Source of the DNA: Pseudomonadota bacterium
Lineage (GTDB): Bacteria; Desulfobacterota; JAZDOA01
Length of the DNA: 38,288 bases
Direction of reading: 5' to 3'
Assembly (NCBI GenBank): GCA_043799175.1
Contig: JAZDOA010000151.1
Location: 1-38,288, forward strand
Positions 1 through 24,514 of this stretch are shown here, in pieces (the first letter of the stretch is position 1; each line of letters opens with the position of its first letter). The translations under genes were made by a program, and so were the position numbers. Below the pieces are notes generated by a model that was not told where the DNA came from, searched no databases, and was given only the letters and a program-made list of their open reading frames with translations.

Positions 1-355
1 TGGCAAGCGGTGGTTCTTCTTCATAGCCCCTCCAGGACTTTCACCCATTGGGTGAAGCTTTGAAGTGACCATTATGCCAGTAACTTCGCTATTCCACAGC
101 ATAAAATTGCATCTATGTAAATCTTAGCCGGAGATTAGGGAGTAACCGGCCCGCGACATGAAACGGTCAGGAAGGAGACAAGGGGGGATGTCGAACGCCT
201 GCCAGTAGCCGGCGCCAGGCAGAAGCGGCGCGCCAGGCAGGGAGGACGATGACTTTCTCTTGACGGAAGGCGAGGCGGCTACATAAATAGCGATACCGGT
301 TCCACCCAAACCGCGGGCAAGGGTGAGAACGGGAGGCGGTTTAGAGGTAGCCACC

Positions 356-2203: not shown

Positions 2204-2214
2204 GGGAGGAAGCA

Positions 2215-2517
2215 ATGGGACGGGCGCGAATCGCGATTCCAAAGGAGCGGGTTGCCGAGTTCTGCCGCAAGCACCACATCCGCAGGCTGGCCCTCTTCGG
2301 CTCCGTGCTGCGCGAGGATTTTGGCCCCGGCAGCGACGTGGACGTGCTGGTGGAGTTCGAGCCTGAGCACATACCGGGGCTGGCCTTCTTCAGCATGGAG
2401 GCCGAGCTGTCCAAGATTCTCGGGCACAAGGTGGACCTGAACACGCCGCAGTTCCTGAGCCGCTACTTCCGGGAGGCGGTCTTGGGTGAGGCGGAGGTGC
2501 AGTATGTCGCGGCGTGA
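2215..2517 (+). CDS. MNT-type minimal nucleotidyltransferase (HepT/MNT antitoxin component)
   Basis: 100-aa product with the nucleotidyltransferase signature '[22 protein letters not shown]' (GSx9-13DxD). A GGGAGGA Shine-Dalgarno sequence sits 4 nt before ATG 2215, 12 nt after the mod stop. The gene overlaps the downstream HepT-like ORF. Confidence 0.8.
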
Positions 2518-2692
2518 CGACCTGGTCCGGCTGCCGGGCGTTGCCTGGCCCCAGATAGTCAGCCTGCGCAACCGGCTCATCCACGGCTACGACTCGGTGG
2601 ACATGGACATCCTCTGGCAAATCCTCCAGCAAGACATACCCACCCTCATAGCCGAGATGGAGAAGGCTGTTTCCACGGAGCCCGAGGGCTGA
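2504..2692 (+). CDS. HepT-like (DUF86) toxin fragment, N-terminally truncated (62-68 aa)
   Basis: Contains the HepT catalytic RX4HXY motif 'LRNRLIHGY' followed by a '[15 protein letters not shown]' helix, i.e. the C-terminal half of a HepT. A stop codon at 2456-2458 in this frame means at most 68 aa (GTG 2486) or 62 aa (ATG 2504) are encoded, so the N-terminal half of a normal ~110-130 aa HepT is absent. Its TGA stop (2690-2692) overlaps the Res ATG (2692) by 1 nt. Confidence 0.5.
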
Positions 2693-5370: not shown

Positions 5371-5588
5371 GACACTGGCCGGAACGTGCGCCCGGTTCTC
5401 TCAAAGAAGTCCGCGGCACATTCGGCGCCCGCAAAAAACGGCCCTGCCGCCGTGGCGGTATTGTCTCCACGCACGTGGGGGTGAACCGAAAGAGGAAAAG
5501 CCCTAACGAATAGAAGGGGAAGAGAAAATAGAACAGACTTTTGCCAGGCGTTTCTACGCCTTGCCCGCACTTGTCTAGGCCGCGTCAA

Positions 5589-5619: not shown

Positions 5620-5645
5620 GTACAGTTTGTTTGGCGGGAGGGTCG

Positions 5646-7580: not shown

Positions 7581-7582
7581 TC

Positions 7583-8236
7583 ATGGCTGGTGGCGATCAT
7601 AACTCGGGACTGGCGAATTCCTTCACAGATCTCATGACTTCCCTGGCGGTCATATTCATCCTGCTGTTGTGCGCCTCGCTCAACAACGCACAACAGGAGG
7701 GACAGAACGTCAGGGCCGCCATCATCGCGGACTTGCAACGCGAACTGCAATCGTTCTTCAAGCAAGGGGTGGAGGTCAAGAAAGACCCGCGCGACCCCCT
7801 GGGACTCATCGTGCTCGTGCCGGAAGGGCTGTTGCAGTTTGCCTTGAACGATGACAACATTCCCCAAGAAGGCAGGCGGTTCCTCAACGCATTTATCCCC
7901 AAGCTCGCCTCGACCATGCTTTCTCCAAGGTTTAGAGATGACATCAATTCCGTAGTAGTAGAGGGACATACCGACTCTTCCGGCACCGATGCAATCAATC
8001 TGCCATTGAGCCAGCGCCGCTCGCTGTCCGTGGTCATGGAGAGCCTCGGAGTGCTCGACGGAGACGCCCGAATGTGTTTCCTCAAGCTGCTTTCCGCAAG
8101 CGGCAGGGGCAGCATGGAGCCGTTCATCGACACCAAAACCGGGCATGAAGACATGGGCAAGAGCCGGCGGGTCTTTTTCAAGATAAGGGTTCGCTCCCTG
8201 GAGCAGAAGACAATCTATAAGTATATTGACTCATAA
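7583..8236 (+). CDS. zorB: ZorB (MotB-like; N-terminal TM helix plus OmpA-family peptidoglycan-binding domain)
   Basis: 217-aa ORF starting 3 nt after the zorA stop. TM helix 'LMTSLAVIFILLLCASL'. OmpA-like core 'VVVEGHTDSSGTDAINLPLSQRRSLSVV' (GHTD...G...N..LS..RA pattern). Confidence 0.75.
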   Translation: MAGGDHNSGLANSFTDLMTSLAVIFILLLCASLNNAQQEGQNVRAAIIADLQRELQSFFKQGVEVKKDPRDPLGLIVLVPEGLLQFALNDDNIPQEGRRFLNAFIPKLASTMLSPRFRDDINSVVVEGHTDSSGTDAINLPLSQRRSLSVVMESLGVLDGDARMCFLKLLSASGRGSMEPFIDTKTGHEDMGKSRRVFFKIRVRSLEQKTIYKYIDS

Positions 8237-8255
8237 AGCTTCTTAGGGGCCATGC

Positions 8256-9623
8256 ATGATCAGCCTTGAGACCTTCCGTCAGACCGAACAACTATTGAGG
8301 GCCAACCTGAAAGACCTCTCACCCGAGACTATTGCTAACTGGCCGACGACGCCCGAGACGCGGCTGAAAGACCTGGCGGCCGTGGTCGCCAGTCTCGACG
8401 TCTTGGGAATGCCTTCCCGTCCTCCCCGCACGCCCGATTATTACCTGCGGGAGTGGGCAGACTACATCGGCGGCCGCCATGACCTCAGTCCAGCCGCCTT
8501 TCGCCACCTGTGCTGGGAACCGGACGTGGCCACCTCGGAACCCTTCCTGTTATGCCTTCAGGCCGACAGCAAGAGGGTTTTGTCCCGCAAAGGGCTGCGA
8601 GGACTGGCATACAGCATCCACGCCTTGTGGTCGAAGCGCGGGTCATTGGGCGATTCCGTAAAGCTGATACGGCAGTTCCTGCGCGATTATGCGGGCTTTG
8701 ACACGGCCATCAACAAGTGGCGGACAAACATCGACTCGCTCTTCGACCTTGAGGCCCACCACGCGCTGGCCGCCCGGCTGCTGGAACAGGGCCAGAAACC
8801 AGACGCCTTCTTTCGCGAGCATTCTCTGTTCCCTTACACCGAGTTCTATTGGGCGGTGCTGCAGGCGGCCATAACCAATTCCCTCGAAGCCATGAGGCGC
8901 GCTTTTTTTTGGCACACCCACCGGTTGCCATCTCTGCTTGAGTACTGCCTGGATCTCCTCTCCGAGGAAGAGCTTCCAACCGCACTTTTCAAGAATACAA
9001 TTGCCCAGATCATCCTAAGCCCGGCGATGGAAAACCAACCTCTGGCCGACCGCGTCAAGGAATACGTACTGGATCATAAAAAGTTGGGCGACCCGCGCCT
9101 TCGGCATAACGGCATACATTGGGCCGGAATTGATGAGGCCGCCAAGGACAAGATTGTCCAATGGCTCTCCAGGGCAGACATCATCTTCTTTTTCGAGCAT
9201 GTCATGCAGCGGGGAGAGGACCGCCACGGCCGGAAGGACTTCTGGCTAAGATACGAAAAGAAGTTCCGGAACACCAGATGCCTTCTCTCCCCCAATGACA
9301 AAGCCCGGTTGAGTTCCGTATTCCATCGGCGTGAATCTCGAATAGAGGGTTACGGGAGCGTGCGCGGTGGCCTTAACCAAAGCGCCTTCCTGCTGGACTT
9401 TGGCTCGGTACTGGCCATCGAGTTTCACAAGGTTGGGGCATGCTACGTCTATAAGCGTCCTGCCCTTCCAGACGTACTGCAAAGCGGCTTGAGAAGTTCG
9501 GAGCACTTCTGGGAAGGGGAACTGAAGGACCAAGATGCCGCTGCTGACCGCATTGTTCATCGCCATGGTTGGCAGGAAAAGATGGCTCAGTGTCTCGCCA
9601 GGCACCAGATCTGGGCCGGATGA
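8256..9623 (+). CDS. zorC: ZorC (EH-signature-domain protein of type I Zorya)
   Basis: 455-aa ORF sitting between the MotAB-like pair and the SNF2 protein, as in type I Zorya. It contains Glu-His dipeptides in conserved-looking contexts ('FFREHSLFPY', 'FFEHVMQRGEDRHG'). It has no other recognisable catalytic motif, so the assignment rests mainly on synteny. Confidence 0.5.
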   Translation: MISLETFRQTEQLLRANLKDLSPETIANWPTTPETRLKDLAAVVASLDVLGMPSRPPRTPDYYLREWADYIGGRHDLSPAAFRHLCWEPDVATSEPFLLCLQADSKRVLSRKGLRGLAYSIHALWSKRGSLGDSVKLIRQFLRDYAGFDTAINKWRTNIDSLFDLEAHHALAARLLEQGQKPDAFFREHSLFPYTEFYWAVLQAAITNSLEAMRRAFFWHTHRLPSLLEYCLDLLSEEELPTALFKNTIAQIILSPAMENQPLADRVKEYVLDHKKLGDPRLRHNGIHWAGIDEAAKDKIVQWLSRADIIFFFEHVMQRGEDRHGRKDFWLRYEKKFRNTRCLLSPNDKARLSSVFHRRESRIEGYGSVRGGLNQSAFLLDFGSVLAIEFHKVGACYVYKRPALPDVLQSGLRSSEHFWEGELKDQDAAADRIVHRHGWQEKMAQCLARHQIWAG

Positions 9624-12600
9624 AGAAGATGGCTTTTCAGCACGATACAAGCTCTCATATTCTGGTTTTGGACCGGCCTGCCCCAGGAGTAGAGGTGCAG
9701 GCCCACTCCGATGCCCTGCGCCTGGTTTCGGCCACCTGTGATTTCGGAGACCGTGACCAGCTTGCGGCTCTTTCCGCGTCGTCACGGACTCATCTTGGCC
9801 GTTCACTCCAGTTTCTCCTGCCGCAGATCCTCGAACTGGGCCGGGCCAACCTGGAAGAGGCCGGCCGCATAGCCATCCCCTACAGCGACCTCTACATCCT
9901 TGAGGATGAAGGCCTGCGAGCCTTCGAGCCGTTGGCCGCTTGGGCACCATTCATGGTGGAACTCTCCTCGACCGGGTCGGTGGGAACTTCTTCTTTCCGT
10001 TACATTTGCCGCCTCTACGTAGGGGCCAGGCAAGTCTTCCCTCGACGCGTGGGGGCATTCGTGGATCTTCAAGGACGCCTCTTGCGACTCGACCGCTCCA
10101 GCTACGCGTTGATCGAGGCGGTGGAGGAAGCCAACAGCCTGCCCGCAGCCGAAAGAAACGCGACAGATGCCCTTCGCAGTTTGGCCCAGATAAGAGGCTT
10201 GGCGGAGGAGATCGGCGTCCAGCTCGACCGTTACCTCGCCCAGGAGCGAGTGATCATTCCCGCTGAGGTTGGAGTCGGTATCGAGGAAGATCATAAGGGA
10301 CGCATCTCCTTCGTTCCTCAGATCGACGGAGTGCCCGATGACGCGTTGAAGCGCGACTTCCTCGCCCGTGACGACACGGGCGTCTATTCCCTCACCCATC
10401 CTGACGGAGGCCAGCTGCGGGTTGTCTTGGGACCCAAGCAAAGAGAGGCGCTTAACAGAATGCGCTGGGTCCGCTTGCTTTCCGGGGAAGCCAAAGCCCG
10501 CGTGCTGGCCAACCCGGCCGCCACCTTCGAGGGACTCCTCGATGATGTCATCCGTATGGACGGCCTAGGGCCGAGAGTCAAAGACATTGGCAACTTCCCC
10601 TTCATTGTCCGTCCCCGCATTTCTTACGGCGTTCTCGACGGCATCCTGGGGAGCGCGCAGCCGCAGCACAAGTTGCCGCGCGCTGGCCTGGAAATCGTCT
10701 CAGTTGACGCCTCCACCGGCGAAAGACACACGGAACACGTCGACTTTGCCAACGAGAAGGAACGTCAGGAATTCACTCAGCAGGTGAAGGACGCCGCACG
10801 GACGGGACAAGGCTGTGTCCAGTTTCGAGACCTGACCGTGCAGGTGGAACCCGAACTCCTCAAGGGACTCGATGAATTGGAGCAGCGGCTAGCTCGGCCA
10901 CCACGTGGTCTCAAGGAGGAGCAGGAGGATCAAGGCCGCTATCTGCTGATCTACACGAACGAGGAGGAAGTCGACTATCCCGGGCAGGGAGAAGGAGAAG
11001 CGCCAGGGCCAGTACCCTCCGCCCCCATCTTCGAGCCTCCGCAGGCTCTGCTGGACACTGATACTCTCACCAAATACCAGCAAGCAGGAATCGCCTGGCT
11101 ACAACTTAACTATCGGCTCAAGGGCCGGCGGGGATGCTTGTTGGCCGACGACATGGGTCTGGGCAAGACTCTTCAGATCCTCAACTTCGTGGCTTGGCTG
11201 ATTGAGCAGGGCTCTCTCCTGGAGAAGCCAGGGGACGCCTCAGAACTCCCGCCCTGGAATCCAGTGCTCGTTGTGGCGCCGGTCATGCTGCTCGAGGTGA
11301 AAACCTGGGTCAAAGACATGCAGTGTTTCTTCCGGCATGAAGGCAATGTATTCCAGCCATACCTGGTTCTACATGGACAAGAACTTCAACGGCTGCGCCA
11401 AGACGGGGTCCGTGGCCGGGAAACCCAGCTGGGTGAGCCAATCCTCGACCTGGAGAAGTTGCGTAGCCATCGCGTCGTTCTCACGAACTACGAAACCGTG
11501 GTTAACTACCAACATTCGTTGGCTCGCATCAAGTGGGCAGCCGTCGTGACCGACGAGGCGCAGGAGTTCAAGACGCCCAGCACCAAAATCTCTCATGCTC
11601 TGAAGAGCCTCGATCCTCGCTTCCGCGTGGCCCTTACGGGCACCCCCGTGGAGACCCGTCTTTTGGATGTCTGGAACATATTCGACTTTCTCCAGCCAGG
11701 CCATCTGCGCAGCGCCAAGGAATTCTGCGATGACTACGAAAGACATCTGGAGGATGATAGCGCGTGCTCCGACGCGCTGAACAGGCTAAAGAAGAGTCTG
11801 GCGCATGGGGAGCCTGACGCCTTCATTCTGAGACGCAATAAAACAGAGTTGAAGGATCTGCCTCCCAAACATGAGCACGAGATCTACTGCCAGCTCTCCG
11901 ACATCCAGCGCCAGCACCACCTCGACCTCGTCCGTCAGGCCGGCACGGGAGCCAGTCATCATTTCAGTCTGCTCAGCAGCCTGATGTTCCTCTATCAGCA
12001 TCCTGATTTGGAGTTATCGAGGGATAGGATGCTCGACCTTCCTGCACAGACGCTGGTGGACCGGTGCCCGAAGCTGTCGGCCACCATTGAAGTCTTATCG
12101 AAGATACGGCGTGCCCGTGAAAAAGCGCTCATTTTCACCCGCAGCATCGTCATGCAACAGGCCATAGCCAAGGTTCTTGGGGAGACATTCGGCCTCAATA
12201 TCGACATCATAAATGGGGCCACCAAGCGCCACAGCCCCCGCGCCAGCGTCGCGACGCGCGAACAAATACTCCAAAGATTCCGTGAGCATGTCGGCTTTCA
12301 CGTCCTCGTGCTCTCACCCGAGGTAGCTGGTTTGGGCCTGACTATTGTCGAGGCAAATCACGTCATCCATTATGGCCGCTGGTGGAATCCGGCCAAAGAA
12401 TCACAGGCGACCGACAGGGTTTATCGCATCGGCCAGAAAAAGGATGTACACGTCTACTACCCAATTGCCCAAGACCCACTTGGGCAGTTCAAGACTTTCG
12501 ATGAAAAGCTCGACGACTTGCTCAAACGCCGGCGCCAATTGGCCACCGACTTCTTGATGCCCATTCCGGATGAGGAGCGCCTGAGCAGGGAACTGGCCGA

Positions 12601-13120
12601 AGGAATTCTGTGCGAGCATGAAGGAGATCGGGGCGAGGTCAGGCCCCTCAATATGCACGACATCCCCGACCTTGCCTGGGATAGGTTTGAGGCTTTGGTG
12701 GGGCTGCTTGAGCACAAGCAGGGGCGCCAAGTCATACTGACCCCGCGGGCGGGAGACCAGGGCATAGATGTCATTGCCGCGGACGGCAACGATGTAAGGC
12801 TTATCCAGTGCAAGCACACTGCTGGCTACAATATTCACGACGAAAGCGTAGCCGAGACTATCGAGGCATTCGACGGCTACCGCGCGAGGTACCTGCGCGG
12901 CAAGAGTCCCTGCAAGCTAATCCTCTCCACCAATGGCGGCTTCACGGAGAGCGCTGGCTCCATGGCGTACCTACGCGGCGTTCAGCTTGTTCCAGGCGCT
13001 GATCTGGAGCGGCTGCTTGATGCTTATCCGGTCACTTTCGCCGAAATCGAGACATTCGCCCAACGCCGTTGCAAGACCATGAAAGAGGTGCGTGCGGCCA
13101 TTCAGGGCTGGCGGCTTTGA
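9620..13120 (+). CDS. zorD: ZorD (SNF2-family ATPase with C-terminal Mrr-like PD-(D/E)xK nuclease domain)
   Basis: SNF2 motif I 'LLADDMGLGKTLQ', motif II 'VVTDEAQEFK' (DEAQ box), and a helicase C region 'ALIFTRSIVMQ...GLGLTIVEANHVIHYGRWWNPAKESQATDRVYRIGQ'. The C-terminal ~130 aa 'VILTPRAGDQGIDVIAADGNDVRLIQCKHTAGY' resembles the Mrr catalytic (type IV restriction) fold. ATG 9620 overlaps the zorC TGA as ATGA; the track ORF begins at 9569. Confidence 0.75.
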   Translation: MKKMAFQHDTSSHILVLDRPAPGVEVQAHSDALRLVSATCDFGDRDQLAALSASSRTHLGRSLQFLLPQILELGRANLEEAGRIAIPYSDLYILEDEGLRAFEPLAAWAPFMVELSSTGSVGTSSFRYICRLYVGARQVFPRRVGAFVDLQGRLLRLDRSSYALIEAVEEANSLPAAERNATDALRSLAQIRGLAEEIGVQLDRYLAQERVIIPAEVGVGIEEDHKGRISFVPQIDGVPDDALKRDFLARDDTGVYSLTHPDGGQLRVVLGPKQREALNRMRWVRLLSGEAKARVLANPAATFEGLLDDVIRMDGLGPRVKDIGNFPFIVRPRISYGVLDGILGSAQPQHKLPRAGLEIVSVDASTGERHTEHVDFANEKERQEFTQQVKDAARTGQGCVQFRDLTVQVEPELLKGLDELEQRLARPPRGLKEEQEDQGRYLLIYTNEEEVDYPGQGEGEAPGPVPSAPIFEPPQALLDTDTLTKYQQAGIAWLQLNYRLKGRRGCLLADDMGLGKTLQILNFVAWLIEQGSLLEKPGDASELPPWNPVLVVAPVMLLEVKTWVKDMQCFFRHEGNVFQPYLVLHGQELQRLRQDGVRGRETQLGEPILDLEKLRSHRVVLTNYETVVNYQHSLARIKWAAVVTDEAQEFKTPSTKISHALKSLDPRFRVALTGTPVETRLLDVWNIFDFLQPGHLRSAKEFCDDYERHLEDDSACSDALNRLKKSLAHGEPDAFILRRNKTELKDLPPKHEHEIYCQLSDIQRQHHLDLVRQAGTGASHHFSLLSSLMFLYQHPDLELSRDRMLDLPAQTLVDRCPKLSATIEVLSKIRRAREKALIFTRSIVMQQAIAKVLGETFGLNIDIINGATKRHSPRASVATREQILQRFREHVGFHVLVLSPEVAGLGLTIVEANHVIHYGRWWNPAKESQATDRVYRIGQKKDVHVYYPIAQDPLGQFKTFDEKLDDLLKRRRQLATDFLMPIPDEERLSRELAEGILCEHEGDRGEVRPLNMHDIPDLAWDRFEALVGLLEHKQGRQVILTPRAGDQGIDVIAADGNDVRLIQCKHTAGYNIHDESVAETIEAFDGYRARYLRGKSPCKLILSTNGGFTESAGSMAYLRGVQLVPGADLERLLDAYPVTFAEIETFAQRRCKTMKEVRAAIQGWRL

Positions 13121-13312: not shown

Positions 13313-13377
13313 TGGTCATGGGCCAGGCGCGCGCGCCCCTCAGGCACCCTCCTCGGCTAACGGCAGCCCGACGAAGA
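13313..13377. repeat. Direct repeat copy A (65 nt, ~89% identical to 15540..15604); relic of the histidine-kinase 3' end
   Basis: 'tggtcatgggccaggcgcgcgcgcccctcaggcaccctcctcggctaacggcagcccgacgaaga' matches 15540..15604, with 7 mismatches in 65. The minus-strand reading ends '...LPLAEEGA-stop', the same as the C-terminus of the HK gene at copy B. Confidence 0.8.
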
Positions 13378-13492
13378 CCGCACCACCGGAGTGGGCACCG
13401 GCCCCGTAGAATTGCCGCAACCCGAGGACCGGATCTGGTATGTTCCTTGTGAGCTGCAAAATGCCACTTATGTCCGCACACCTGGAGGAATC

Positions 13493-15508
13493 ATGCTGGA
13501 TCTGTTTTATGCTCACCTGACACTGGTCAGCACCGTCGCGACCGGCCTCGTGATTCTCGGCTATTATTCGATCGTCATCGTCTCCGGCAGGGAACTGGCG
13601 GTGCTGGAACGGCGCTGGTGCGGCAGACAGATGCCGCAGGGGCGCGTCGTGGCCATGGGAGACGAGGTCGGCATCCAGGCCCGGACCCTGGGCCCCGGCC
13701 TGCACTTTCTGCTACCCTTCGTCTACGCGGCGCGAAAGTACCCCTTCGCCGAGATCAAGGACGGCGAGATCGGCATCGTGGAGTCTATCGACGGCAACCC
13801 CATCCCGCCGGGTCGGATTTTTGCCCAGGTGGTGGAGGGACACAACGCCTTTCAAGACGGCGAGGTCTTCCTGAAGAACGGCGGCCAGAAAGGCCCCCAG
13901 ATCCAGATCCTTTCCCCAGGGAAGTACCGGATCAACCCCTACCAGTTCAACGTCACCAATGGGGAGGCGGTCGTCGTCGACAAGGGTAAGGTGGGTGTCG
14001 TCGCCGCCATGGACGGCAAGAGCATACCCGCCGGGAGGCTCCTGGGGCAGCGCGTCGCCGAGCACTCCAATTTCGAGAACGGCCAGGCCTTTATCGAGAA
14101 CGGCGGGCAGAAGGGGCCGCAGATCGACATCCTGCAGCCGGGGACCTACCGCATCAACCTAAACCAGTTCGAGGTGGAGATCCACGACGCCACGGTAATC
14201 CCGGCCAACAACGTCGGCCTGGTGACCGCCCTCGACGGCAATCCGCTCCCGGAAACGGAGTACATCGCCAAGTCGGTCTCCGGCCACGAGGACTACCAGG
14301 ACGCCCAAAAATTTCTCTTCGCCGGCGGCCAGCGCGGGCCACAGCTCAACATGCTGCGGCCGGGCACGTACTACATCAATCCCCTCATGTTCAAGGTGGA
14401 GCTCGACGACGTCACCGTGGTGGAACGGGGCCAAGTGGCGGTGGTCATCTCCAACGTGGGGGAAGAGCCGACCGCGGAAATGAAGCGGCGCCTGAGCGCC
14501 TCCCAGACCAATACGCTGACCGAAGAGGAGGCCAGGGAGCGGTACGTGGTTCCCGAGGGGTACCGCGGCATCCAGGAGGAGGTGGCCGGCCCTGGACGCT
14601 ACTACCTCAACAAGCGGGCCTTCATCCCGTACATCATTGACACCACCAACATCACCATAGACTGGGACAGCGCGGCGGACACCCGCTTCGATCCTCTCAA
14701 GGTGATCTCCAAGGACGGCTTCCCGATTGACGTTTCGGTCAAGGTCGTGGTCCGCGTCCGGCCGGATCAGGCCCCGTACATGGTCGCCAAGGTCGGCTCC
14801 GCGGAGAACCTCATCCTCCACGTCATCCACCCCATGATAGACTCCTCGTTCCGCAACCAGGCCTCGTCCACCTCGGCCATGAACTTTCTGCAGAACCGCC
14901 AGGAAGAGCAGGTCCGCGCCGAAGACCGGGCCCGTGCCAGCCTGGAGAAGTACCACGTGGAGTGCGTATCCGTCCTCATCTGCCAAATCAACCTGCCCCA
15001 GGACCTGATGGAGACCCAGACCAGGCGGATCATCGCCGAGCAGCAGAAGGAGATGTTCGCCATGCAGCAGGAGGCCGAGGCGGCCAGAATCTCCACCGAA
15101 AAGACCCGCGCCACCGCCGACCAGCAGGGTGAGCTGGTCAAGGCCGAGATCGGGGTGAAGGTCGCCGACCAACAGAAGCAGAAGACCATCGTCCTGGCGC
15201 AGGGGGATGCCGAGGGGATACGGCTGCGCGGCGAGGGCGAGGCGAGGAAGATCGAGGCCATCGGCCAGGCAACCGCCCAGGCCTACCGGGAGCAGAATGC
15301 CGCCCTTGGTCAGGAGGCGATTACCGCCATCGAGGTGATGAAGAAAGTCGCCGAGGGCAATATCCGCATCACCCCCGATATTCTCGTCGCCGGCGAAAAC
15401 GGGGGCCTCCTCGACGTGCTGCTGGCCCAGTTAGTCAAGAAGGGTTCTCTGCCGGATGCGGTTGAACCCGGCAGGCACTGCAAGGCAAGGGTGATGGAGG
15501 CGGAGTGA
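13493..15508 (+). CDS. Flotillin/SPFH (band-7) family membrane protein with N-terminal tandem ~73-aa repeats
   Basis: GGAGG Shine-Dalgarno sequence then ATG 13493; TM helix 'LTLVSTVATGLVILGYYSIVIV'. Three clear plus one degenerate repeat unit '...G(V/I)V..DG.(P/S)IP.GR.....V.(G/E)H..F..G..F..NGGQ(K/R)GPQ...L.PG.Y.IN...F.V'. The SPFH core is '...KVISKDGFPIDVSVKVVVRV...HVIHPMIDSSFRNQASS'. A flotillin-type EA-rich coiled-coil C-terminus follows: 'QQKEMFAMQQEAEAARISTEKTRATADQQ...'. Confidence 0.7.
   Translation: MLDLFYAHLTLVSTVATGLVILGYYSIVIVSGRELAVLERRWCGRQMPQGRVVAMGDEVGIQARTLGPGLHFLLPFVYAARKYPFAEIKDGEIGIVESIDGNPIPPGRIFAQVVEGHNAFQDGEVFLKNGGQKGPQIQILSPGKYRINPYQFNVTNGEAVVVDKGKVGVVAAMDGKSIPAGRLLGQRVAEHSNFENGQAFIENGGQKGPQIDILQPGTYRINLNQFEVEIHDATVIPANNVGLVTALDGNPLPETEYIAKSVSGHEDYQDAQKFLFAGGQRGPQLNMLRPGTYYINPLMFKVELDDVTVVERGQVAVVISNVGEEPTAEMKRRLSASQTNTLTEEEARERYVVPEGYRGIQEEVAGPGRYYLNKRAFIPYIIDTTNITIDWDSAADTRFDPLKVISKDGFPIDVSVKVVVRVRPDQAPYMVAKVGSAENLILHVIHPMIDSSFRNQASSTSAMNFLQNRQEEQVRAEDRARASLEKYHVECVSVLICQINLPQDLMETQTRRIIAEQQKEMFAMQQEAEAARISTEKTRATADQQGELVKAEIGVKVADQQKQKTIVLAQGDAEGIRLRGEGEARKIEAIGQATAQAYREQNAALGQEAITAIEVMKKVAEGNIRITPDILVAGENGGLLDVLLAQLVKKGSLPDAVEPGRHCKARVMEAE
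13748..14410 (+). repeat. Tandem intragenic coding repeats (about 3 x 220 nt) inside the SPFH gene
   Basis: Three units are visible in the translation: 'GEIGIVESIDGNPIPPGR...NGGQKGPQIQILSPGKYRINPYQFNV', 'GKVGVVAAMDGKSIPAGR...NGGQKGPQIDILQPGTYRINLNQFEV', and 'NNVGLVTALDGNPLPETE...AGGQRGPQLNMLRPGTYYINPLMFKV'. Coordinates are approximate. Confidence 0.55.
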
Positions 15509-15539: not shown

Positions 15540-15604
15540 TGGTCATGAACCAGGCGCGGGATTCCCTCAGGCACCCTCCTCGGCTAACGGCAGCTCGACG
15601 AAGA
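15540..15604. repeat. Direct repeat copy B (65 nt); it is the functional 3' end of the histidine-kinase gene
   Basis: Same 65-nt sequence as 13313..13377. It covers the last 12 codons and stop of the minus-strand HK gene plus about 25 nt downstream. Confidence 0.8.
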
Positions 15605-17174
15605 AGGTGGTTCCCTGAGACGGCTCGCTCTCGGCCCAGATGCGGCCGCCGTGGCGATCCACGATGCTCTTGGCGATGTAAAGCCCCACGCCGAGGCCGG
15701 CATAGACGGCCTGCTGCGGGCCGGGCTTATAGAAACGCTCGAAGATATGGGGCAGATGCTCCGGGGCGATGCCGATCCCCTCGTCGCGCACATCCACGAG
15801 GGCGCGCCCGTCGTGGTGGCGTGCCTGCATCCAGATGCGGCCTCCCTCGGGGCTGTACTTGATGGCGTTGTCGAGCAGATTGGAGAAGACCTGCTCCAGC
15901 CGCACCGGGTCGCCCTTCACCACCAACGGCTCCTCGGGCGGACAGAAGACGAGGCGGTGATCAAGAATGGGCCGTTCGCAGACCGCCCTGACGACCTTGG
16001 TCAGATCGAGTTCCCGGAGCTCGACGGGCATGCGGCCCATCTCCAGCCGCGAGACCTCCAGCAGGTCGTTGACGAGTTGCACGAGCTGATCCGTCTGCCT
16101 CAGCAGCCTGGTCACTATGTCCCGGCTGAGCACCTCGGGCCGGCGCAGGGCCAGCTCGCTGAAGATCTTGATCGACGTCACGGGGGTCTTCAGTTCGTGA
16201 GAGGCCATGGAGAGGAACTCGTCCTTGAGGCGGCTGGCCTCCTCTATCTTCCGCTGGACCTCCTTCTGGGCGGTGATGTCCCAGAAGACGACCACGGCTC
16301 CCGTCCTCTGTCCACCCACGACCAGGGGCAGGGCGGTGCAGATGACGGGCACCAGCCGGCCGTCGGCCCGCACGAGCGTCTCCTCCCAGCCGATCGTGGC
16401 CTCGCCCTGCAAGGCCTTGAAGATGCCGAGCTCCTCCGGCGCCAGCGCCCTTCCCTTCGGGCAGAGCACCTTCCAGGTCTTGCCATAGTTCGTGAGGTCC
16501 TTGACCTCGTCCCGGCTAAGCCCAATCAGCCGCTCGACGGCCTCGTTGACGAGGACGATCCGTCCGTCCGCCGCGGCAATGAGCACGCCCGCGGGCAACT
16601 GGTCGAGGATGGCGGCCAGCCAGTCGGCCCTCTCCTGCTCCCAGAGCGCCAGCTCCTCGGCCTGGCGCCTGGCGTTTGCCAGCTCCTCGGCCCGCCGCTG
16701 TTCGGTGAGGTCGGTCACGACCATGCAAAAACAACTGTTTTCTCCCAGGGGCAGGGGGCTGACCGACACCAGGGCGGGCAACACTCCGTCGCCCCTACGG
16801 AACCGGATCTCGCCGCGGCTGCCGGACGGGCCACGGGAAAGCAAAGCCGACAGGGCAGCCGTCTCTTCCCAAACCGCGTGCCGCTCAAGCGGAGAGCCGA
16901 TCACCTTCTCGATCGGCAGGCCGAGCATCTCGGCCAACCGGCGGTTGCAGTAGAGGATGGTGCCGTCCGCGGCCAGGGTGGCGGCCCCCTCGCTCATGGC
17001 CTCTACCAGAACCTGGTAGGCGCGGTCAGCCCCCTTGAGGGTATAGACCTGGTCGCCCACCACCAGGGCGTCCACCTCGCCACCCCGGATGGCCGCAATC
17101 GTCTCCTCCGCCTCGCGCAGGCGCTCCATCATCTCCTCGATCTCGCTGCGCGGCGTGTCTTCGTTCTCAGGCAT
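15567..17174 (-). CDS. Cytoplasmic PAS-domain sensor histidine kinase (probable output kinase of the KaiBC module)
   Basis: 535-aa ORF with no TM segment. An N-terminal coiled coil is followed by PAS-like segments. The HisKA H-box is 'EFLSMASHELKTPVTSI'. HATPase_c motifs are 'NLLDNAIKY', 'DEGIGI' and 'GLGVGLYIAKSIVDRHGGRIW'. The ATG start overlaps the kaiB stop by 8 nt. Confidence 0.85.
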   Translation of the reverse strand: MPENEDTPRSEIEEMMERLREAEETIAAIRGGEVDALVVGDQVYTLKGADRAYQVLVEAMSEGAATLAADGTILYCNRRLAEMLGLPIEKVIGSPLERHAVWEETAALSALLSRGPSGSRGEIRFRRGDGVLPALVSVSPLPLGENSCFCMVVTDLTEQRRAEELANARRQAEELALWEQERADWLAAILDQLPAGVLIAAADGRIVLVNEAVERLIGLSRDEVKDLTNYGKTWKVLCPKGRALAPEELGIFKALQGEATIGWEETLVRADGRLVPVICTALPLVVGGQRTGAVVVFWDITAQKEVQRKIEEASRLKDEFLSMASHELKTPVTSIKIFSELALRRPEVLSRDIVTRLLRQTDQLVQLVNDLLEVSRLEMGRMPVELRELDLTKVVRAVCERPILDHRLVFCPPEEPLVVKGDPVRLEQVFSNLLDNAIKYSPEGGRIWMQARHHDGRALVDVRDEGIGIAPEHLPHIFERFYKPGPQQAVYAGLGVGLYIAKSIVDRHGGRIWAESEPSQGTTFFVELPLAEEGA

Positions 17175-17828: not shown

Positions 17829-19574
17829 TCAGCCCTCCTTTTGGGGGCCGGAGGGCAGCTCCTCCCGGAAGCACGTCTCCCTCCGCTCGACCATGGTCCG
17901 CCGCTCCTTGGTTTCAAGCTCCCCTCGCAGCCGCACCTCATCGAGGAAGCGGTCCATTTCGTCCTCTTCGGCCGCCAGCGCGGCCTCCAGCGCGGCCATC
18001 CGGGTCCGTATGGCCAGGCGCCGGCGCTCCAGGGCACGCCCGCGGCGCGCGACTTCCTGCTCGCGAGCGGCGACCTCGGCCCGCTCCTTGGCCTCCTGGA
18101 CGGCCCGCGCCGAGCCGGAGAGCACACCCCGCGGCCCGACATAAACCGGGGACAACTCGATACCCCGGTCGGTGAGCAGGAACTCGCGCATCTGGTTGGA
18201 GTGCTTCATGCCCCGTGACTTAAGGACGTGGATGTGGCGGTTGCGCTCCCCGTCGGTCTCGACGTCACCCAGCACGATCCAGGTGTCCATCAGCGAGGAG
18301 ATGCCCACCTCGGTGGCCTCGAGGGCCAGCCCACCGGATGTGAGGTTGGTGAACATGCCCGTGATCTGGTGCGTCTTGAGAAAGTCGATCAGCCGCACGA
18401 GCATGGACTTGACGTCCAGAGTTCCGTCACCCGCCGCGAGGCTGCTGATGGGGTCGATCGCGACCACCGCCGGCTTGAACTCCGTGGCCACGCGCTGCAT
18501 CGAGAGCAGGTGCTGCTCGATACCCGTGAGGCTGGGGCGGGTGGCCTCGAAACGCAGCAGGCCGGCCTTGACATGGCGTGGGAGGTCGAGTCCGATCGAG
18601 GCCATGTTGCGCATGATCTGGGCGGGAGATTCCTCGAAGGTGTAGTAGACGGCCCGCTCGCCCCGCTGGCAGGCCGAATCGACGAAGCAGACCGCCAGGC
18701 TGCTCTTGCCCGTGCCCGCCGTGCCAGACACCAACACGCTCGAGCCGCGGTACCAACCCCGCCCCCCCAGCATTTCGTCCAGGCCCAAAACACCCGTCGA
18801 GACGCGGTGGCGCGAGACCTCGTAGCAGAGACCCAGCGAGGTGACGGGCATGACCCAGACGCCGTCCTCGCCGATGAGGAAGGGGTACTCGTTGGTGCCG
18901 TGTACGGAGCCACGGTACTTCGCCACGCGCAGGCGCCTGGTCGAGACCTGCTCGTGGACGCGGTGGTCGAGCAGAATGACGGCATCGGAGACGTACTCCT
19001 CCAGGCCGTGGCGGGTAAAAGCGGCCGAATCGCGACCCCGTTCGGCGGTGATGATGGCCGTGATGCCCCGGTCCTTGAGCCAGCGGAAGAGGCGCCGGAT
19101 CTCGGCCCGCAGGATCATCTCATTCGGCAGCCCGGAAAAGAGGGCCTCCAGGGTGTCGAGCACGACGCGCCTGGCCCCGATGGAGTCTATGGCGTGGCCC
19201 AGGCGCACGAAGAGGCCCTCGAGGTCGTACTCGCCCGTCTCCTCGATCTCGCTGCGCTCTATGTAGATATAATCTATCAGGAGCTTCTTCCGCGCCACCA
19301 GCCCGGCCACATCCCAGCCGAGGGAAGAGACGTTCCTGACCAGGTCCGCGGCCGACTCCTCGAAGGCGACGAAGACCCCCGGCTCCTCGTACTCTTGGGC
19401 GCCGCGCACCAGGAACTCCATGGCCATGAGGGTCTTGCCCGAACCCGCCCCGCCGCTCAGGAGGGTGGGCCTGCCCTGGGGCAGTCCGCCGAAGGTGATC
19501 TCGTCAAGGCCCCTGATGCCAGTCGGGGTCTTAGGCAGCCCCCGCTCCGAGGGGGTGATGGACTCCTCCGCCAC
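17829..19574 (-). CDS. kaiC: KaiC (double RecA-like P-loop ATPase/autokinase)
   Basis: 581 aa. CI Walker A 'LLSGGAGSGKTLMAMEF' and CII Walker A 'VLVSGTAGTGKSSLAV', in the typical duplicated KaiC architecture. GTG start 19574 is preceded by a GAGGAGG Shine-Dalgarno sequence. Confidence 0.9.
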   Translation of the reverse strand: MAEESITPSERGLPKTPTGIRGLDEITFGGLPQGRPTLLSGGAGSGKTLMAMEFLVRGAQEYEEPGVFVAFEESAADLVRNVSSLGWDVAGLVARKKLLIDYIYIERSEIEETGEYDLEGLFVRLGHAIDSIGARRVVLDTLEALFSGLPNEMILRAEIRRLFRWLKDRGITAIITAERGRDSAAFTRHGLEEYVSDAVILLDHRVHEQVSTRRLRVAKYRGSVHGTNEYPFLIGEDGVWVMPVTSLGLCYEVSRHRVSTGVLGLDEMLGGRGWYRGSSVLVSGTAGTGKSSLAVCFVDSACQRGERAVYYTFEESPAQIMRNMASIGLDLPRHVKAGLLRFEATRPSLTGIEQHLLSMQRVATEFKPAVVAIDPISSLAAGDGTLDVKSMLVRLIDFLKTHQITGMFTNLTSGGLALEATEVGISSLMDTWIVLGDVETDGERNRHIHVLKSRGMKHSNQMREFLLTDRGIELSPVYVGPRGVLSGSARAVQEAKERAEVAAREQEVARRGRALERRRLAIRTRMAALEAALAAEEDEMDRFLDEVRLRGELETKERRTMVERRETCFREELPSGPQKEG

Positions 19575-21293: not shown

Positions 21294-22385
21294 GTGGACG
21301 GCACCTTTACCGTCACGGCCCCCGTACTCAGCCGGGACGCGGAAGACCTTATCGTGGCCACCAATCCTGCCCAGGAAGACGAAATCCGCAGGACGGCCAG
21401 CCTTCACCGGGTTAGGGTGCGTGCGGCCGGGCCGCCTTCGCCTGCTCAGCGTGGCGAGGTGTTCCGGGTTCCTCAGCTTTCCTTTGAACTTTGGGGCTCA
21501 CGGGAACTGCTGGAGCATGAAGCCGTGCTTGTGGCTGCCGCCTGGTCTCCAGTACGCTTTTCCTGCGGATTCCTGCCAGGCGAGTTTGATTATGACGAAA
21601 AAGCCCGCACCTTCGTCTTTGACCTCGAAGGCGAGCAGATGCGCTTTCGACAGGCCGAAGACCAGGTGCAGTTTACTCTGCTGTCGGCCCAGCCCCCGTC
21701 AGATGCCTTTGGGCTTTCGCGGTGGCTGGTAGGACATGGCGGGGTTGAAGATAAGTTTGTGAAATTACCTGACCTCCTGGAGTTTTGCCGCCGTTGCATC
21801 GACTCCCTTCTCAAGCGCGGCCAGTTTGATCTAGCCACCTTGTTTCGCGCCAAGTATGCCTTGGCCGCCGCCCTCAAGGCCAAACTGGCCAGCAACCGGC
21901 AGGAGGCCGTCCGGGAAGGAGTGCAGCGGCTCTTGACCCCGGAATTTGGACTGGCGGCAACCTTCGACTTCTTCCCGCACACCTTCCCCAAGGGCGACTA
22001 TGCCGAGAGTATTCCGGCTTACTCTGGTCACTACCGATTCCCCAAGCACTATTACAGGCAGGTGCGTGACCTGAAATCCAAGGGCGAGGAATTCGACTGC
22101 GCGCGCATGCTTGACCGCCACCCGCAGGTCAGGTGGTGGGTCCGCAACGTGGACAGGCAAGCCGGTTCGTTTCGTCTGCCGCTCTCGAACGGCCATTACT
22201 TCTATCCAGACTTTGTGGCTGAGTTGACGGACGGGCGCCTGCTCGTGGTGGAATACAAAGGCGAGCATCTGGTAAGCGCAGACGAGGCCAGGGAGAAAGA
22301 GAACATCGGCAAGCTTTGGGAAGAACGCAGCGGGGGGAAGGGTGTGTTCAGGATGCTTGGGCAGGGGCAGGCCCTCGGAATCTGA
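21294..22385 (+). CDS. Stand-alone paralogue of the Type III Res C-terminal region (PD-(D/E)xK nuclease-like), no helicase domain
   Basis: 363 aa from a GTG start. The upstream frame is open to 21138 without an ATG. Its C-terminal ~250 aa align by eye with the C-terminus of the res product in this window. Examples: 'EEFDCARMLDRHPQVRWWVRNV' matches 'SEVEREFVRGLESRDDVRLYVKL', and 'YPDFVAELTDGRLLVVEYKGEHL' matches 'YNPDWAIVMED...LYLVRETKGKN'. No Walker or DEAH motifs are present. Confidence 0.5.
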   Translation: MDGTFTVTAPVLSRDAEDLIVATNPAQEDEIRRTASLHRVRVRAAGPPSPAQRGEVFRVPQLSFELWGSRELLEHEAVLVAAAWSPVRFSCGFLPGEFDYDEKARTFVFDLEGEQMRFRQAEDQVQFTLLSAQPPSDAFGLSRWLVGHGGVEDKFVKLPDLLEFCRRCIDSLLKRGQFDLATLFRAKYALAAALKAKLASNRQEAVREGVQRLLTPEFGLAATFDFFPHTFPKGDYAESIPAYSGHYRFPKHYYRQVRDLKSKGEEFDCARMLDRHPQVRWWVRNVDRQAGSFRLPLSNGHYFYPDFVAELTDGRLLVVEYKGEHLVSADEAREKENIGKLWEERSGGKGVFRMLGQGQALGI

Positions 22386-22483
22386 TACGCCTGACGAACA
22401 TCCAAGTATCTTAGACGGTTACGAAGGCAGGCGGGTTGCCGTAGAATACTGCCTATGAGTAACTGGACCTTTGAATATTCGGG

Positions 22484-22511
22484 TTGACCTTACTTATAAA
22501 CACGTTAGAAT
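22484..22511 (+). promoter_or_regulatory. Sigma70-like promoter (TTGACC, 16-nt spacer, TAGAAT) upstream of the Panacea-domain gene
   Basis: TTGACC at 22484-22489 and TAGAAT at 22506-22511 in a conspicuously AT-rich 200-nt intergenic stretch. It sits about 87 nt upstream of GTG 22598. Confidence 0.4.
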
Positions 22512-22597
22512 TGTAGCTCTGAAGCAATGCAGACTGCCTTGGTAGAGGGTGGCAGGGACAGTGCGAACGGTGTATTCTTTGCATGTGGGTATGATTT

Positions 22598-23401
22598 GTG
22601 GAGCCTGACCGAGTGGACAACATAATCCAGTTCTCGCTGGCCACGGCGCGCTGCGTCCATGACGACGACAAGATGCTCCAGGACCTGGGGCCAATCCATC
22701 TGATCAAGTATGTGTACCTGGCCGACCTGGCATATGCCGAGAAGCATGGTAGAACCTATACTGAAACCAATTGGGTATTTCACCACTTCGGCCCATGGGC
22801 CGCCGAGGTTTATCAGCGTCTCGACCTAGCGACACAGGCTATCCATGCGGATAAGAAGCAGATCGAAAGCCGCTATAGTGAGGATTTCACCCGTTGGCGT
22901 CTCGATAACTACGAAGACGCCGTTCGTGTAAGAGAAGAGCATTCCAAGAACTTGCCTTTTGAGATTACAAGCGTCGTTCAACACGCCGTGAAGGAATATG
23001 GCAATGCAACAACTGACCTTCTTCACGACGTCTATCTCACATTTCCGATGTTACACGCAGCGCCTGGCGACGAGCTGGACTTCCGCAGCGTGCAGGAAAG
23101 ACCTGAGCCTGAGCCACCTGCTGCTGAGCCTGTACAGGTCAGCCGGAACGCAATGAAGAAGCGCAAGCAGCGCCTGGAAGAAGCACGCCGCCGCTTCGCC
23201 CAAAAGGCTGCCGAACGTTCACGCGAGAAGGCGGCAAGGAGGGCAGCTCAGGCCCCCCCGCGCTACGATGATGTTTTCGATGAGGGAACACGGGTTCTCG
23301 ATGAGCTTGCAGGCCCGCCGCTTGAGGTTCAAGACGGAATTCTGGAATTCAGCGACGAGATATGGAAGTCACCGATACGCACGGGTGAGGATGACGGGTA
23401 A
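22598..23401 (+). CDS. Panacea-domain (DUF4065, SocA/PanA-like) putative antitoxin with charged low-complexity C-terminal region
   Basis: The N-terminal ~130 aa 'NIIQFSLATARCV...PIHLIKYVYLADLAYAEKHGRTYTETNWVFHHFGPWAAEVYQRL' fits the Panacea consensus (..LKLQKLLY.A......G......F.A...GPV...vY). The C-terminal half is a K/R/E/A-rich linker-like sequence. GTG start. Confidence 0.55.
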   Translation: MEPDRVDNIIQFSLATARCVHDDDKMLQDLGPIHLIKYVYLADLAYAEKHGRTYTETNWVFHHFGPWAAEVYQRLDLATQAIHADKKQIESRYSEDFTRWRLDNYEDAVRVREEHSKNLPFEITSVVQHAVKEYGNATTDLLHDVYLTFPMLHAAPGDELDFRSVQERPEPEPPAAEPVQVSRNAMKKRKQRLEEARRRFAQKAAERSREKAARRAAQAPPRYDDVFDEGTRVLDELAGPPLEVQDGILEFSDEIWKSPIRTGEDDG

Positions 23402-23410
23402 CTGCCACAG

Positions 23411-24103
23411 GTGAACACGATCCAGGACCTGGTAGATCCATGGTGGGAGGTTGCCGAGCCAGCCAAGCTTCAGGCTGGTCGCCTTGCGAGGACTTTTGTG
23501 CCCGTCCCGGACGTTGTTACCCGTGGGGTGGTCCTGGAGGGTCGCGAAGACGCCCGTAATCACACCACTGCAAGGTTCAGGGTCGAGCCCATTCAGGCAG
23601 GTCGGTCACCAAGCTTGTCATCACTACCCGTTGCGGCGCTACCTGCGCACCCTGGGGAGTCCTATATCGCCCAACGAGGAAAGAGGCGACCTGTGCTCAT
23701 TCTCTCCATGGGCGGCTTGGAGATTCCGAAAGCCGTGTCTCACGGTGGGCCTGGGTACCAGCGAAAGCCGTGCGTGCTTGTAGTGCCTTTTTATGGCGGA
23801 GACCAGGACGGCAGCAGAGCTGGCTTCTCGCCGGAATTCGTGGAGCGCATCAAACGGATAGAGTATCCGCAGTATATCGCCGACACGCTACCCCTCGGCA
23901 ACCTAGCCATGTCCATCATGCGGCTTGACCACGTCTTGGCAGTCGGATGCGCTCCAAGCAATTTTGAGCTGATGCCGCACCGGCTGAGTAACGATGCCTT
24001 GGAACTGGTCCTGGATTGGTTCCGTTGGCTGGTTGAGGGGTCTCTCCCAACCGGAAGTCTTCTTGAGTGGGCTCGTTCCGAGCTGATGAAGATGAATGCA
24101 TAA
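23411..24103 (+). CDS. Uncharacterised 230-aa protein coupled to the Panacea gene; possible MazF/PemK-like (SH3-barrel) toxin fold
   Basis: Starts 10 nt after the Panacea gene stop, with a GTG start. Segments 'GRLARTFVPVPD', 'KRRPVLILS', 'CVLVVPFYGG' and 'SIMRLDHV' are spaced like MazF/PemK strands ('GdIwlVdfdP', 'khRPalVlS', 'vvvvPiTs'), with a ~50-aa insertion. This is a weak by-eye similarity only. Confidence 0.35.
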   Translation: MNTIQDLVDPWWEVAEPAKLQAGRLARTFVPVPDVVTRGVVLEGREDARNHTTARFRVEPIQAGRSPSLSSLPVAALPAHPGESYIAQRGKRRPVLILSMGGLEIPKAVSHGGPGYQRKPCVLVVPFYGGDQDGSRAGFSPEFVERIKRIEYPQYIADTLPLGNLAMSIMRLDHVLAVGCAPSNFELMPHRLSNDALELVLDWFRWLVEGSLPTGSLLEWARSELMKMNA

Positions 24104-24288
24104 GGGAGTACAGTTCTTCCCATGTATTCTGTGATCCTATCCTCTGACCTTCCGGCCCAGGTGCAGTCCTTCTTTTCGCGCCCTGACAACACAATACCCC
24201 CGGCAGTTTTTCACCGCCGAGGGTAGCACCGAAGTAGCACCATGTTTTCTGTTGGGTTCACTCTGGCCACCCAACTACTTGTTTTTAT

Positions 24289-24364
24289 TGGTAGGCCGCC
24301 GGGGGCTCGAACCCCAAACCTACTGATTAAGAGTCAGTTGCTCTACCAGTTGAGCTAGCGGCCC
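24289..24364 (-). tRNA. tRNA-Lys (anticodon CTT), with encoded CCA
   Basis: Minus-strand read: GGGCCGC-TA-GCTC-AACTGGTA-GAGC-A-ACTGA-CTCTTAA-TCAGT-AGGTT-TGGGG-TTCGAGC-CCCCG-GCGGCCT-A-CCA. All four stems pair, the T-loop is TTCGAGC, and the anticodon loop is CT-CTT-AA. Confidence 0.85.
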
Positions 24365-24514
24365 AAAACAGCATCAAAAAAACACGCCAAGGATTAAGGA
24401 TTTCGACACGCCTCGCCGCGCCAAATTGCTGCACCATGAAAGGCGCAACGAATTTGAAATTCTACCCGCGCCCCCGCCGTCTGGCAAGTAAAAAAGCCCG
24501 CGTCGCGCACTAAA

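Follow-up and report, generated by a model that had tools for sequence, protein, structure and literature searches.

The subject of this work is a pair of adjacent genes on contig JAZDOA010000151.1 (GenBank assembly GCA_043799175.1; a metagenome-assembled contig labelled 'Pseudomonadota bacterium' at NCBI, GTDB lineage Desulfobacterota), of which the whole stretch of 38,288 nucleotides (nt), called the window below, was analysed. The two genes lie on the plus strand and consist of a panA-like antitoxin gene (22598..23401; 267 amino acids (aa), GTG start, TAA stop) followed by the gene of a putative toxin (23411..24103; 230 aa, GTG start), which has a predicted MazF/CcdB-fold core with extensions. 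From the evidence below it is probable, though some way from certain, that they form a toxin-antitoxin (TA) pair of type II and of the PanAT kind, in which an expanded MazF-fold toxin, likely an endoribonuclease with a remodelled active site, would be neutralised by the C-terminal extension of PanA, the Panacea domain having a regulatory role. The pair had been pointed out in a sequence-only reading of the window; the coordinates that it gave for both open reading frames (ORFs), and their coupling, are exact, and the three segments that it quoted from the 230-aa translation (GRLARTFVPVPD, KRRPVLILS and CVLVVPFYGG) are all present.

The stop codon of PanA and the GTG codon of the toxin are 9 nt apart, and both ORFs are in one frame, so that read-through of a single stop in this window would yield a PanA-toxin fusion. 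Three sense codons stand between the TAA and the GTG in the shared frame (23399-23413). In the NCBI record, ORF1 is named 'type II toxin-antitoxin system antitoxin SocA domain-containing protein', and just the last 136 codons of ORF2, from Val95, are called, as a hypothetical protein (locus V2A77_08175). The 136-aa call leaves the toxin without its insertion and without its first barrel strand; the 230-aa ORF is favoured over it, because homologues of 230-250 aa occur in more than 600 clusters (see below). The toxin gene is the final gene before tRNA-Lys(CTT) (24289..24364, minus strand, 3' end towards the cassette), with no gene between, as the description of the pair as the last module before the tRNA had implied. 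The tRNA is regarded as context outside the module. Adjacency to a tRNA was considered as a trait of the family and rejected, because only 5 of 60 loci have any tRNA in their flanks and these tRNAs differ. A weak terminator-like hairpin with a 5-bp stem lies directly past the toxin stop codon (24104..24121, plus strand), and is not above chance. An Rfam scan of the cassette region gave no match apart from the tRNA, and thus no sign of an RNA antitoxin.

ORF1 matches the Pfam family PF13274 SocA_Panacea (formerly DUF4065) over aa 35-143 (E 6.6e-8; 33.9 bits against a gathering cut-off of 25.7), in agreement with its earlier assignment as a Panacea-domain protein. It has 767 detected homologues, nearly all of about 260 aa, and a precomputed PF13274 match is present in 20 among the 120 homologues listed. 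The PanA homologues of two loci (L002 and L005) score below the threshold, with E of about 0.01. Because most relatives fall below the PF13274 threshold, this PanA family lies at the margin of what the Pfam profile detects. The AlphaFold 2 (AF2) model of PanA alone has a predicted local distance difference test (pLDDT) value of 90.1. Its top PDB match is 7yk3, a M. tuberculosis DarTG complex, chains B/D (probability 0.97-0.99); the match is weak (E 0.05; template modelling score 0.42-0.47), and no solved structure that is clearly a PanA was found for comparison.

Based on the alignment and the AF2 model, PanA may be divided into four parts, all read from the plus strand. The Panacea domain (aa 1-160; 22598..23077) is the most conserved, with the motif LGPIHLIKYVYLADLAYAE...WxFHHFGPW and a mean column conservation of 0.57-0.74. 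It is followed by a variable and partly disordered linker (aa 161-182), a long basic helix in the model (aa 183-217; 23144..23248), and an acidic and aromatic C-terminal motif, PPRYDxVFxEGxxWLDxLAG...FSDxIWKSxxR (aa 218-262; 23249..23383). The basic helix carries a net charge of +8.8 +/- 2.3 over 68 homologues, with low sequence conservation (0.39). The C-terminal motif has a net charge of -3.2 and modelled helices at 223-238 and 253-257, and seven of its residues (R222, D224, G230, L234, W256, S258 and R261) reach a conservation of 95% or more. The whole C-terminal extension of about 110 aa matches no named domain in Pfam, the only hit being DUF6643 below threshold (E 0.044). Within it, the motif of aa 218-262 is proposed as the toxin-neutralising element.

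PanA belongs by its match to the SocA_Panacea family, of which SocA of the Caulobacter SocAB system is the founding member. This favours an alternative in which PanA, in the manner of SocA, is an adaptor for proteolysis and brings a stable toxin to ClpXP or a different protease, with the long basic helix and the C-terminal motif possibly serving as adaptor or degron elements. Such a role is considered very unlikely. The conserved C-terminal motif is co-inherited with the toxin in every locus and fits a binding interface, and the PanA antitoxins assayed by Kurata et al. (2022, PMC8832971) form complexes with their toxins, which points to direct neutralisation.

The 230-aa protein had been described as without a motif that could be named, and indeed no match to it is found in Pfam, NCBIfam, PADLOC or PHROGs. 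A word-indexed search gave 31 homologues, and an exhaustive profile search gave 624 representative clusters at E <=1e-3 and 200 at <=1e-30, nearly all of 230-250 aa. No match was obtained by tblastn against plasmid and phage collections, and the family is rare in IMG/VR (3 contigs).

The structural model supports a MazF/PemK-like fold for the toxin, namely a CcdB/MazF SH3-like barrel with a large insertion, much as the sequence-only reading had supposed from the spaced segments. The predicted core strands are at aa 24-31, 85-99, 121-129, 155-158, 168-171, 176-179 and 186-192, with a helix after them at 194-209, and all of the higher-ranked structural matches are ribonucleases (RNases). Besides this core, the model has an added N-terminal segment in which a WW is conserved, an extra helix (141-148), and one further helix, the second, at the C-terminus. 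The insertion of about 50 residues (aa 32-84; 23504..23662, plus strand) occupies the position of the MazF beta1-beta2 loop. It is modelled as a beta-hairpin at 38-60 (strands 38-47 and 50-60) and a flexible loop at 61-84 of lower pLDDT, which carries a conserved LPVAALP motif and E83.

The pair was followed in 86 loci, 80 from species-representative genomes and six from metagenome assemblies, most of the homologous loci being taken with a 3-kb flank. A full-length PanA homologue, extension included, is located by tblastn immediately upstream of the toxin gene and on the same strand in 82 of the 86. In the remaining four the toxin gene abuts the end of the contig, so that the pair is present in all 82 testable loci. 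The PanA-toxin pair is thus an obligate unit, and the association of the 230-aa ORF with Panacea genes, which had been suggested for a survey, holds wherever it may be judged. In most loci (about 60) the toxin start overlaps the 3' end of PanA by 11, 14, 17 or 20 nt in a different frame; the +9 in-frame spacing of this window is unusual, yet compatible with coupling. The pairwise identities of PanA and of the toxin also co-vary (Pearson r 0.88; 2,278 pairs from 68 loci). In a segment-wise mirror-tree analysis the signal of shared phylogeny prevailed, and neither a PanA segment that follows the toxin nor the interface emerged from it.

Clustering of all flanking ORFs revealed no third conserved gene, the next real cluster being present in no more than eight loci. 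The neighbouring genes vary with the genome, and among them are those for resolvase and primase-like proteins, PIN/HicB/Uma2, acetyltransferases, and UvrD. As in type II TA systems, there are two small, co-directional and coupled genes that are inherited together in variable contexts. The hosts include Acidobacteriota, Desulfobacterota, Geobacter, Binatia and many Gammaproteobacteria (Solimonas, Sinimarinibacterium, Methylomicrobium and Sulfuricaulis among them), together with one metagenome-assembled genome (MAG) each of Bacteroidales and Bacillota. Truncated or frameshifted copies of PanA or toxin were also seen, at loci L020, L050, L051, L078, L079 and L086 (e.g. a PanA of 162 aa at L020 and a toxin ORF of 38 aa at L050); this suggests that the cassette is decaying in certain lineages, or that the assemblies contain errors.

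These patterns bear on whether the two genes are a TA system at all, or a conserved two-protein module with a non-toxic role, e.g. a nucleic-acid-binding regulator and its partner. For the latter, it may be argued that toxicity of the 230-aa protein is assumed, and that several predicted PanT proteins, including a MazF-like one of Flavobacterium xanthum, are non-toxic in E. coli (Kurata 2022, PMC8832971). A non-toxic module is nevertheless highly improbable, given the TA-like architecture, the strictness of the pairing and the overlap of the genes, the patchy phyletic spread, and the toxin-type fold.

In the comparison of the putative active site with that of MazF, conservation was counted over 68 non-identical family members from different phyla, and the reference was a MazF/Kid/ChpBK alignment of five sequences that were verified as MazF-family by PDB search (E down to 6.5e-49). 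Nine residues (R45, H51, K91, R93, P126, R146, E151, Y152 and S168) are invariant in the 68 members, and E83 is present in 67. The motif K91-x-R93-P94 (23681..23692, plus strand) is at the start of a strand; P94 occurs in 67 of the 68. A weak hhalign alignment places RRPVLILS on VRPVLVIQ of MazF, whereby R93-P94 would correspond to the catalytic pair R25-P26 that opens beta2. It likewise places CVLVVPFYG on TAIVAAITA, with Y128 on the catalytic T48, as well as S168 on S73, and D173 and H/Q174 on E78 and Q79. P126-F127-Y128-G129 (23786..23797, plus strand) would accordingly end the strand aligned to MazF ..AIT48. This alignment is consistent with the topology of the model.

The residues R25 and T48 of B. 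subtilis MazF have R29 and T52 as their equivalents in E. coli MazF. In the present family, position 128 is Tyr in 64 members, Phe in three and His in one, and is never Thr or Ser, so that a catalytic Thr/Ser is not found there. Both Arg25 and Thr48 are essential for catalysis by the B. subtilis enzyme (PMC10893535). It appears from the sequences that, of the MazF site, the Arg-Pro half is retained but not the Thr half. Two invariant residues of catalytic type, R45 and H51, come from the inserted hairpin.

The reading as a MazF-type toxin meets with several contrary observations. ORF2 has no Pfam match to PF02452 (PemK/MazF) even at E up to 1. A search of PDB sequences with the toxin profile gives chance matches only (enolase), and the hhalign probability between the toxin family and the MazF/Kid/ChpBK alignment is 4.9%, which is not significant. 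By sequence, therefore, the protein is not placed in the PemK/MazF family. The residue correspondences given above also depend on a weak alignment together with topology, and the toxicity of the protein, as stated, is assumed.

One may consider, then, that the CcdB/MazF fold acts on a target other than RNA, for example by poisoning DNA gyrase, or by binding or modification of some other nucleic acid or protein, mediated by the insertion; the predicted fold as such would also fit a CcdB-like or other activity. A non-RNase activity is nevertheless judged quite unlikely, in view of the fact that the higher-ranked structural matches are exclusively RNases, that the Arg-Pro motif and several positions aligned to RNA-contact residues of MazF are conserved, and that the PanA-associated MazF-like toxins assayed so far inhibit translation (PMC8832971). 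On the structural model, an RNase with a remodelled site appears to be the most economical reading.

The proposed mechanism of the TA system may be outlined as follows. The cassette would be a self-contained and horizontally mobile unit of two genes, with the toxin gene translationally linked to the panA-like gene. The toxin would be a MazF/Kid/CcdB-type SH3-like barrel with a 50-residue insertion, a WW segment at the N-terminus, and additional helices at the C-terminus. Its most likely activity would be sequence-specific endoribonuclease cleavage that inhibits translation, performed by a site in which R93-P94 is kept, Tyr128 stands for the catalytic Thr, and the invariant R45, H51 and K91 and the near-invariant E83, attributed to the insertion, may take part. 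Neutralisation would most likely be 'linear', i.e. PanA would bind the toxin by its C-terminal extension and block it, by analogy with the C-terminal tail of MazE on MazF and with Phd-C in the PanA from C. doosanense. This would leave the Panacea domain as the regulatory or sensor part.

The intergenic 5' leader of the cassette (22400..22597) contains a sigma-70-like promoter candidate, TTGACC-16 nt-TAGAAT (22484..22511, plus strand; 10/12 match), 87 nt 5' of the PanA start. The sequence-only reading had regarded this as a near-consensus promoter in a sharply AT-rich stretch, and as a sign of recent horizontal acquisition. The site is present, and is the sole such promoter-like site in 22300-24400, but shuffled sequence gives 1.1 +/- 0.9 equal sites per 2.1 kb, so that by itself it is not above chance. 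Its placement, upstream of PanA in the only long intergenic gap, is sensible. Among the homologous loci, promoter-like sites of at least 9/12 are found upstream of PanA in 17 of 75, against 0 of 75 coding control windows, which indicates that the cassette often carries its own promoter. The leader is only moderately AT-rich, with a GC of 0.43-0.48 over 22400-22600 against about 0.56-0.66 in the flanks. Such a lowered GC is ordinary for an intergenic promoter region and should not be taken as an indication of recent acquisition; better evidence of horizontal acquisition is given by the variable neighbourhoods of the cassette elsewhere and by the lower-GC defence island. The leader showed no convincing operator-like palindrome.

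The island to the left of the cassette includes a complete type III restriction-modification (R-M) system (323-5370), composed of Mod (323-2203; MTase_III, 4.6e-185) and Res (2692-5370; REase_III, 3.2e-241), the latter bearing a C-terminal RE_endonuc domain. This is followed by a complete Zorya type I system, ZorABCD (5631-13120; PADLOC E-values 9e-21 to 3e-210), with ZorA at 5631-7580, ZorB at 7583-8236, ZorC with an EH_Signature domain at 8256-9623, and ZorD with SNF2 helicase and Mrr nuclease domains at 9569-13120. Next comes an SPFH/Band-7 gene (13391-15508). Between Zorya and the TA cassette are located also a PAS/HisKA/HATPase histidine kinase (15567-17174, minus strand) and a double-domain KaiC-like ATPase (17829-19574, minus strand) with a weak PADLOC match to 'mad8' (2.3e-12). 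A Sel1-repeat protein gene lies left of the cassette. The SPFH/Band-7 gene is flanked by a 65-nt direct repeat, 89% identical, at 13313-13377 and 15540-15604. The copy at 15540-15604 covers the stop codon of the minus-strand kinase, and that at 13313-13377 looks like a duplicated 3' end of the kinase gene from insertion of the SPFH gene.

Directly 5' of the TA promoter, 21294-22385 codes for the C-terminal piece of a Res from a different type III family, here an orphan (PADLOC PDLC03650, positions 529-875 of 898, E 4.5e-51). Only the last 40% of the family's length is represented, the helicase part was not found upstream, and the intact Res at 2692-5370 is not similar to it; the ORF is probably what is left of a gene. 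A 35-nt similarity (77%) past the two Res genes (5343-5377 and 22417-22451) was taken as chance, because the two proteins have no relation to each other and the similarity does not extend into the flanks.

On the right-hand side of the tRNA stand housekeeping genes, for a transglycosylase, an ammonium transporter, a NUDIX protein, an aldolase and aspartate-semialdehyde dehydrogenase, and the GC is 0.63-0.71, against 0.52-0.60 on the left. From gene content and the GC shift, it appears that the tRNA marks the change from a defence/accessory region to core genes. No att-like direct repeat of the 3' end of tRNA-Lys is present in the window, and no integrase is among the window ORFs scanned; 'island boundary' is therefore a term based only on gene content and GC.

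The position of the cassette at the end of a defence island means that it may act as an abortive-infection module. In an alternative that makes this its main function, the Panacea domain would sense a phage cue and release or activate the MazF-fold effector from a stable complex. This alternative overlaps the TA reading given above and differs from it just in biological role and trigger. It draws on the location of the cassette as the last module of a cluster with complete type III R-M and Zorya type I systems, on the proposal of a sensor function for Panacea where another element neutralises (Ernits et al. 2023, PMC10440598), and on the movement of the cassette as a unit into variable neighbourhoods rich in TA systems and mobile elements. 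PADLOC, however, has no model for either protein, and many TA pairs in islands are without a demonstrated role in defence. A mainly anti-phage function is accordingly held to be possible, but on balance doubtful. In the boldest reading, the toxin family would be an enlarged branch of the MazF/CcdB fold, its rebuilt site (R45 and H51 of the family-specific hairpin, with K91, R93 and Y128) would serve a non-MazF substrate or chemistry, the unnamed C-terminal domain of PanA would neutralise, the Panacea domain would be a phage sensor, and the whole would be a new PanA-linked abortive-infection effector and more than a further MazEF-like pair; this combination is considered unlikely.

At least 88 toxin domain types are known as partners of Panacea antitoxins, PemK matches among them (Kurata et al. 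2022, PMC8832971). In the same survey, some PanT clusters without a CDD match are related by HHpred to EndoA/PemK/MazF. Of these, cluster T6 includes the PanAT of Pseudomonas moraviensis, which was validated as a translation-inhibiting TA neutralised by its PanA, and cluster T5 includes a toxic member from Chryseobacterium bovis and also Steroidobacter cummioxidans (PMC8832971). Panacea either neutralises directly or is accessory to an appended neutralising element such as Phd-C, PAD1 or ZBD (Ernits et al. 2023, PMC10440598), and a role as sensor has been proposed for it (PMC10440598).

The T5 and T6 systems resemble the present one in that a Panacea antitoxin lies upstream of a toxin that is tied to EndoA/PemK/MazF by profile or structure methods only, with the order antitoxin then toxin, a tiny gap or overlap, and a PanA without an N-terminal accessory domain. 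However, none of the T5/T6 genera (Pseudomonas, Halomonas, Rhodanobacter, Photorhabdus, Bacteroides, Prevotella, Chryseobacterium and Steroidobacter) is among the 85 species-representative genomes that carry the present family. Furthermore, the T5 representative matches EndoA with an HHpred probability of 99.5%, whereas the hhalign value of the present toxin family against MazF is the 4.9% given above. This suggests that the present family differs from T5/T6, the distinction being drawn from genera and profile scores. Conversely, none of the isolate genera of the present family occurs in the part of Dataset S1 of Kurata et al. that was covered, or in the supplements of Ernits et al. 2023 as far as these were covered, and no report on the family was found in the literature later than these two papers.

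The canonical MazEF, PemIK and Kis-Kid systems have a toxin of about 110 aa, in contrast to 230 aa here. Canonical MazF matches PF02452, has a catalytic Thr in place of the Tyr, and has its beta1-beta2 loop where the present toxin has its 50-residue insertion. The antitoxins of these systems have an AbrB or ribbon-helix-helix (RHH) DNA-binding domain, whereas here there is a Panacea domain. The PanA-Phd-C of C. doosanense, PAD1-PanA and ZBD-HTH-PanA (PMC10440598) share with the present PanA the combination of Panacea with a family-specific segment, and in all of these toxin binding is more plausibly ascribed to the extra segment than to Panacea itself. They differ in that their partners are Doc, toxSAS or MqsR and not a MazF-fold toxin, and the present extension, with its basic helix and PPRYDxVF...IWKS, is unnamed.

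Another relative in kind is found on the Nostoc plasmid pNLP1 (WP_104910153/WP_104910154; L087, NZ_CP026693.1 70085-71168), where PanA is followed after 1 nt by a 200-aa toxin. The NCBI annotation of this pair is a SocA-domain antitoxin with a PemK/MazF family toxin. Its toxin matches Pfam PemK_toxin (E 1.3e-10), its PanA is a stand-alone Panacea domain of 159 aa, and its toxin has no detectable similarity to the present toxin family (hhalign probability 0.2%). It was observed that the pNLP1 toxin has an insertion after the first strand that is Cys/His-rich (CKLGHVH...CQTC), and is thus an independent enlarged MazF that accompanies Panacea. With CcdAB of the F plasmid, the fold alone is in common: CcdB poisons gyrase and is without the Arg-Pro and Thr RNase site, and the C-terminus of the present toxin consists, in the model, of two additional helices.

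The interest of Panacea lies in the fact that one domain serves dozens of unrelated toxin partners, and in the questions of its mode of neutralisation and of the cue that it may sense. The present family, with more than 600 representative clusters in several phyla, provides a clean natural case in which a MazF-fold toxin is always accompanied by an extended PanA, and its conserved and separable extension is suited to tests of 'linear' against 'conformational' neutralisation and of the idea of a Panacea sensor. Surveys based on Pfam or on annotation miss the family, because its PanA is mostly below the Pfam threshold and its toxin is without a family model and, in the record of this contig, cut to 136 aa. 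Since the combination of PanA with a MazF-like toxin is already established, the gain is incremental rather than conceptual. The suggestion that the 230-aa protein is an undescribed toxin partner of PanA should therefore be divided: the kind of system, PanA with an EndoA/PemK/MazF-like toxin, is already known and catalogued (T5 and T6), while this particular family and its architecture appear to be undescribed.

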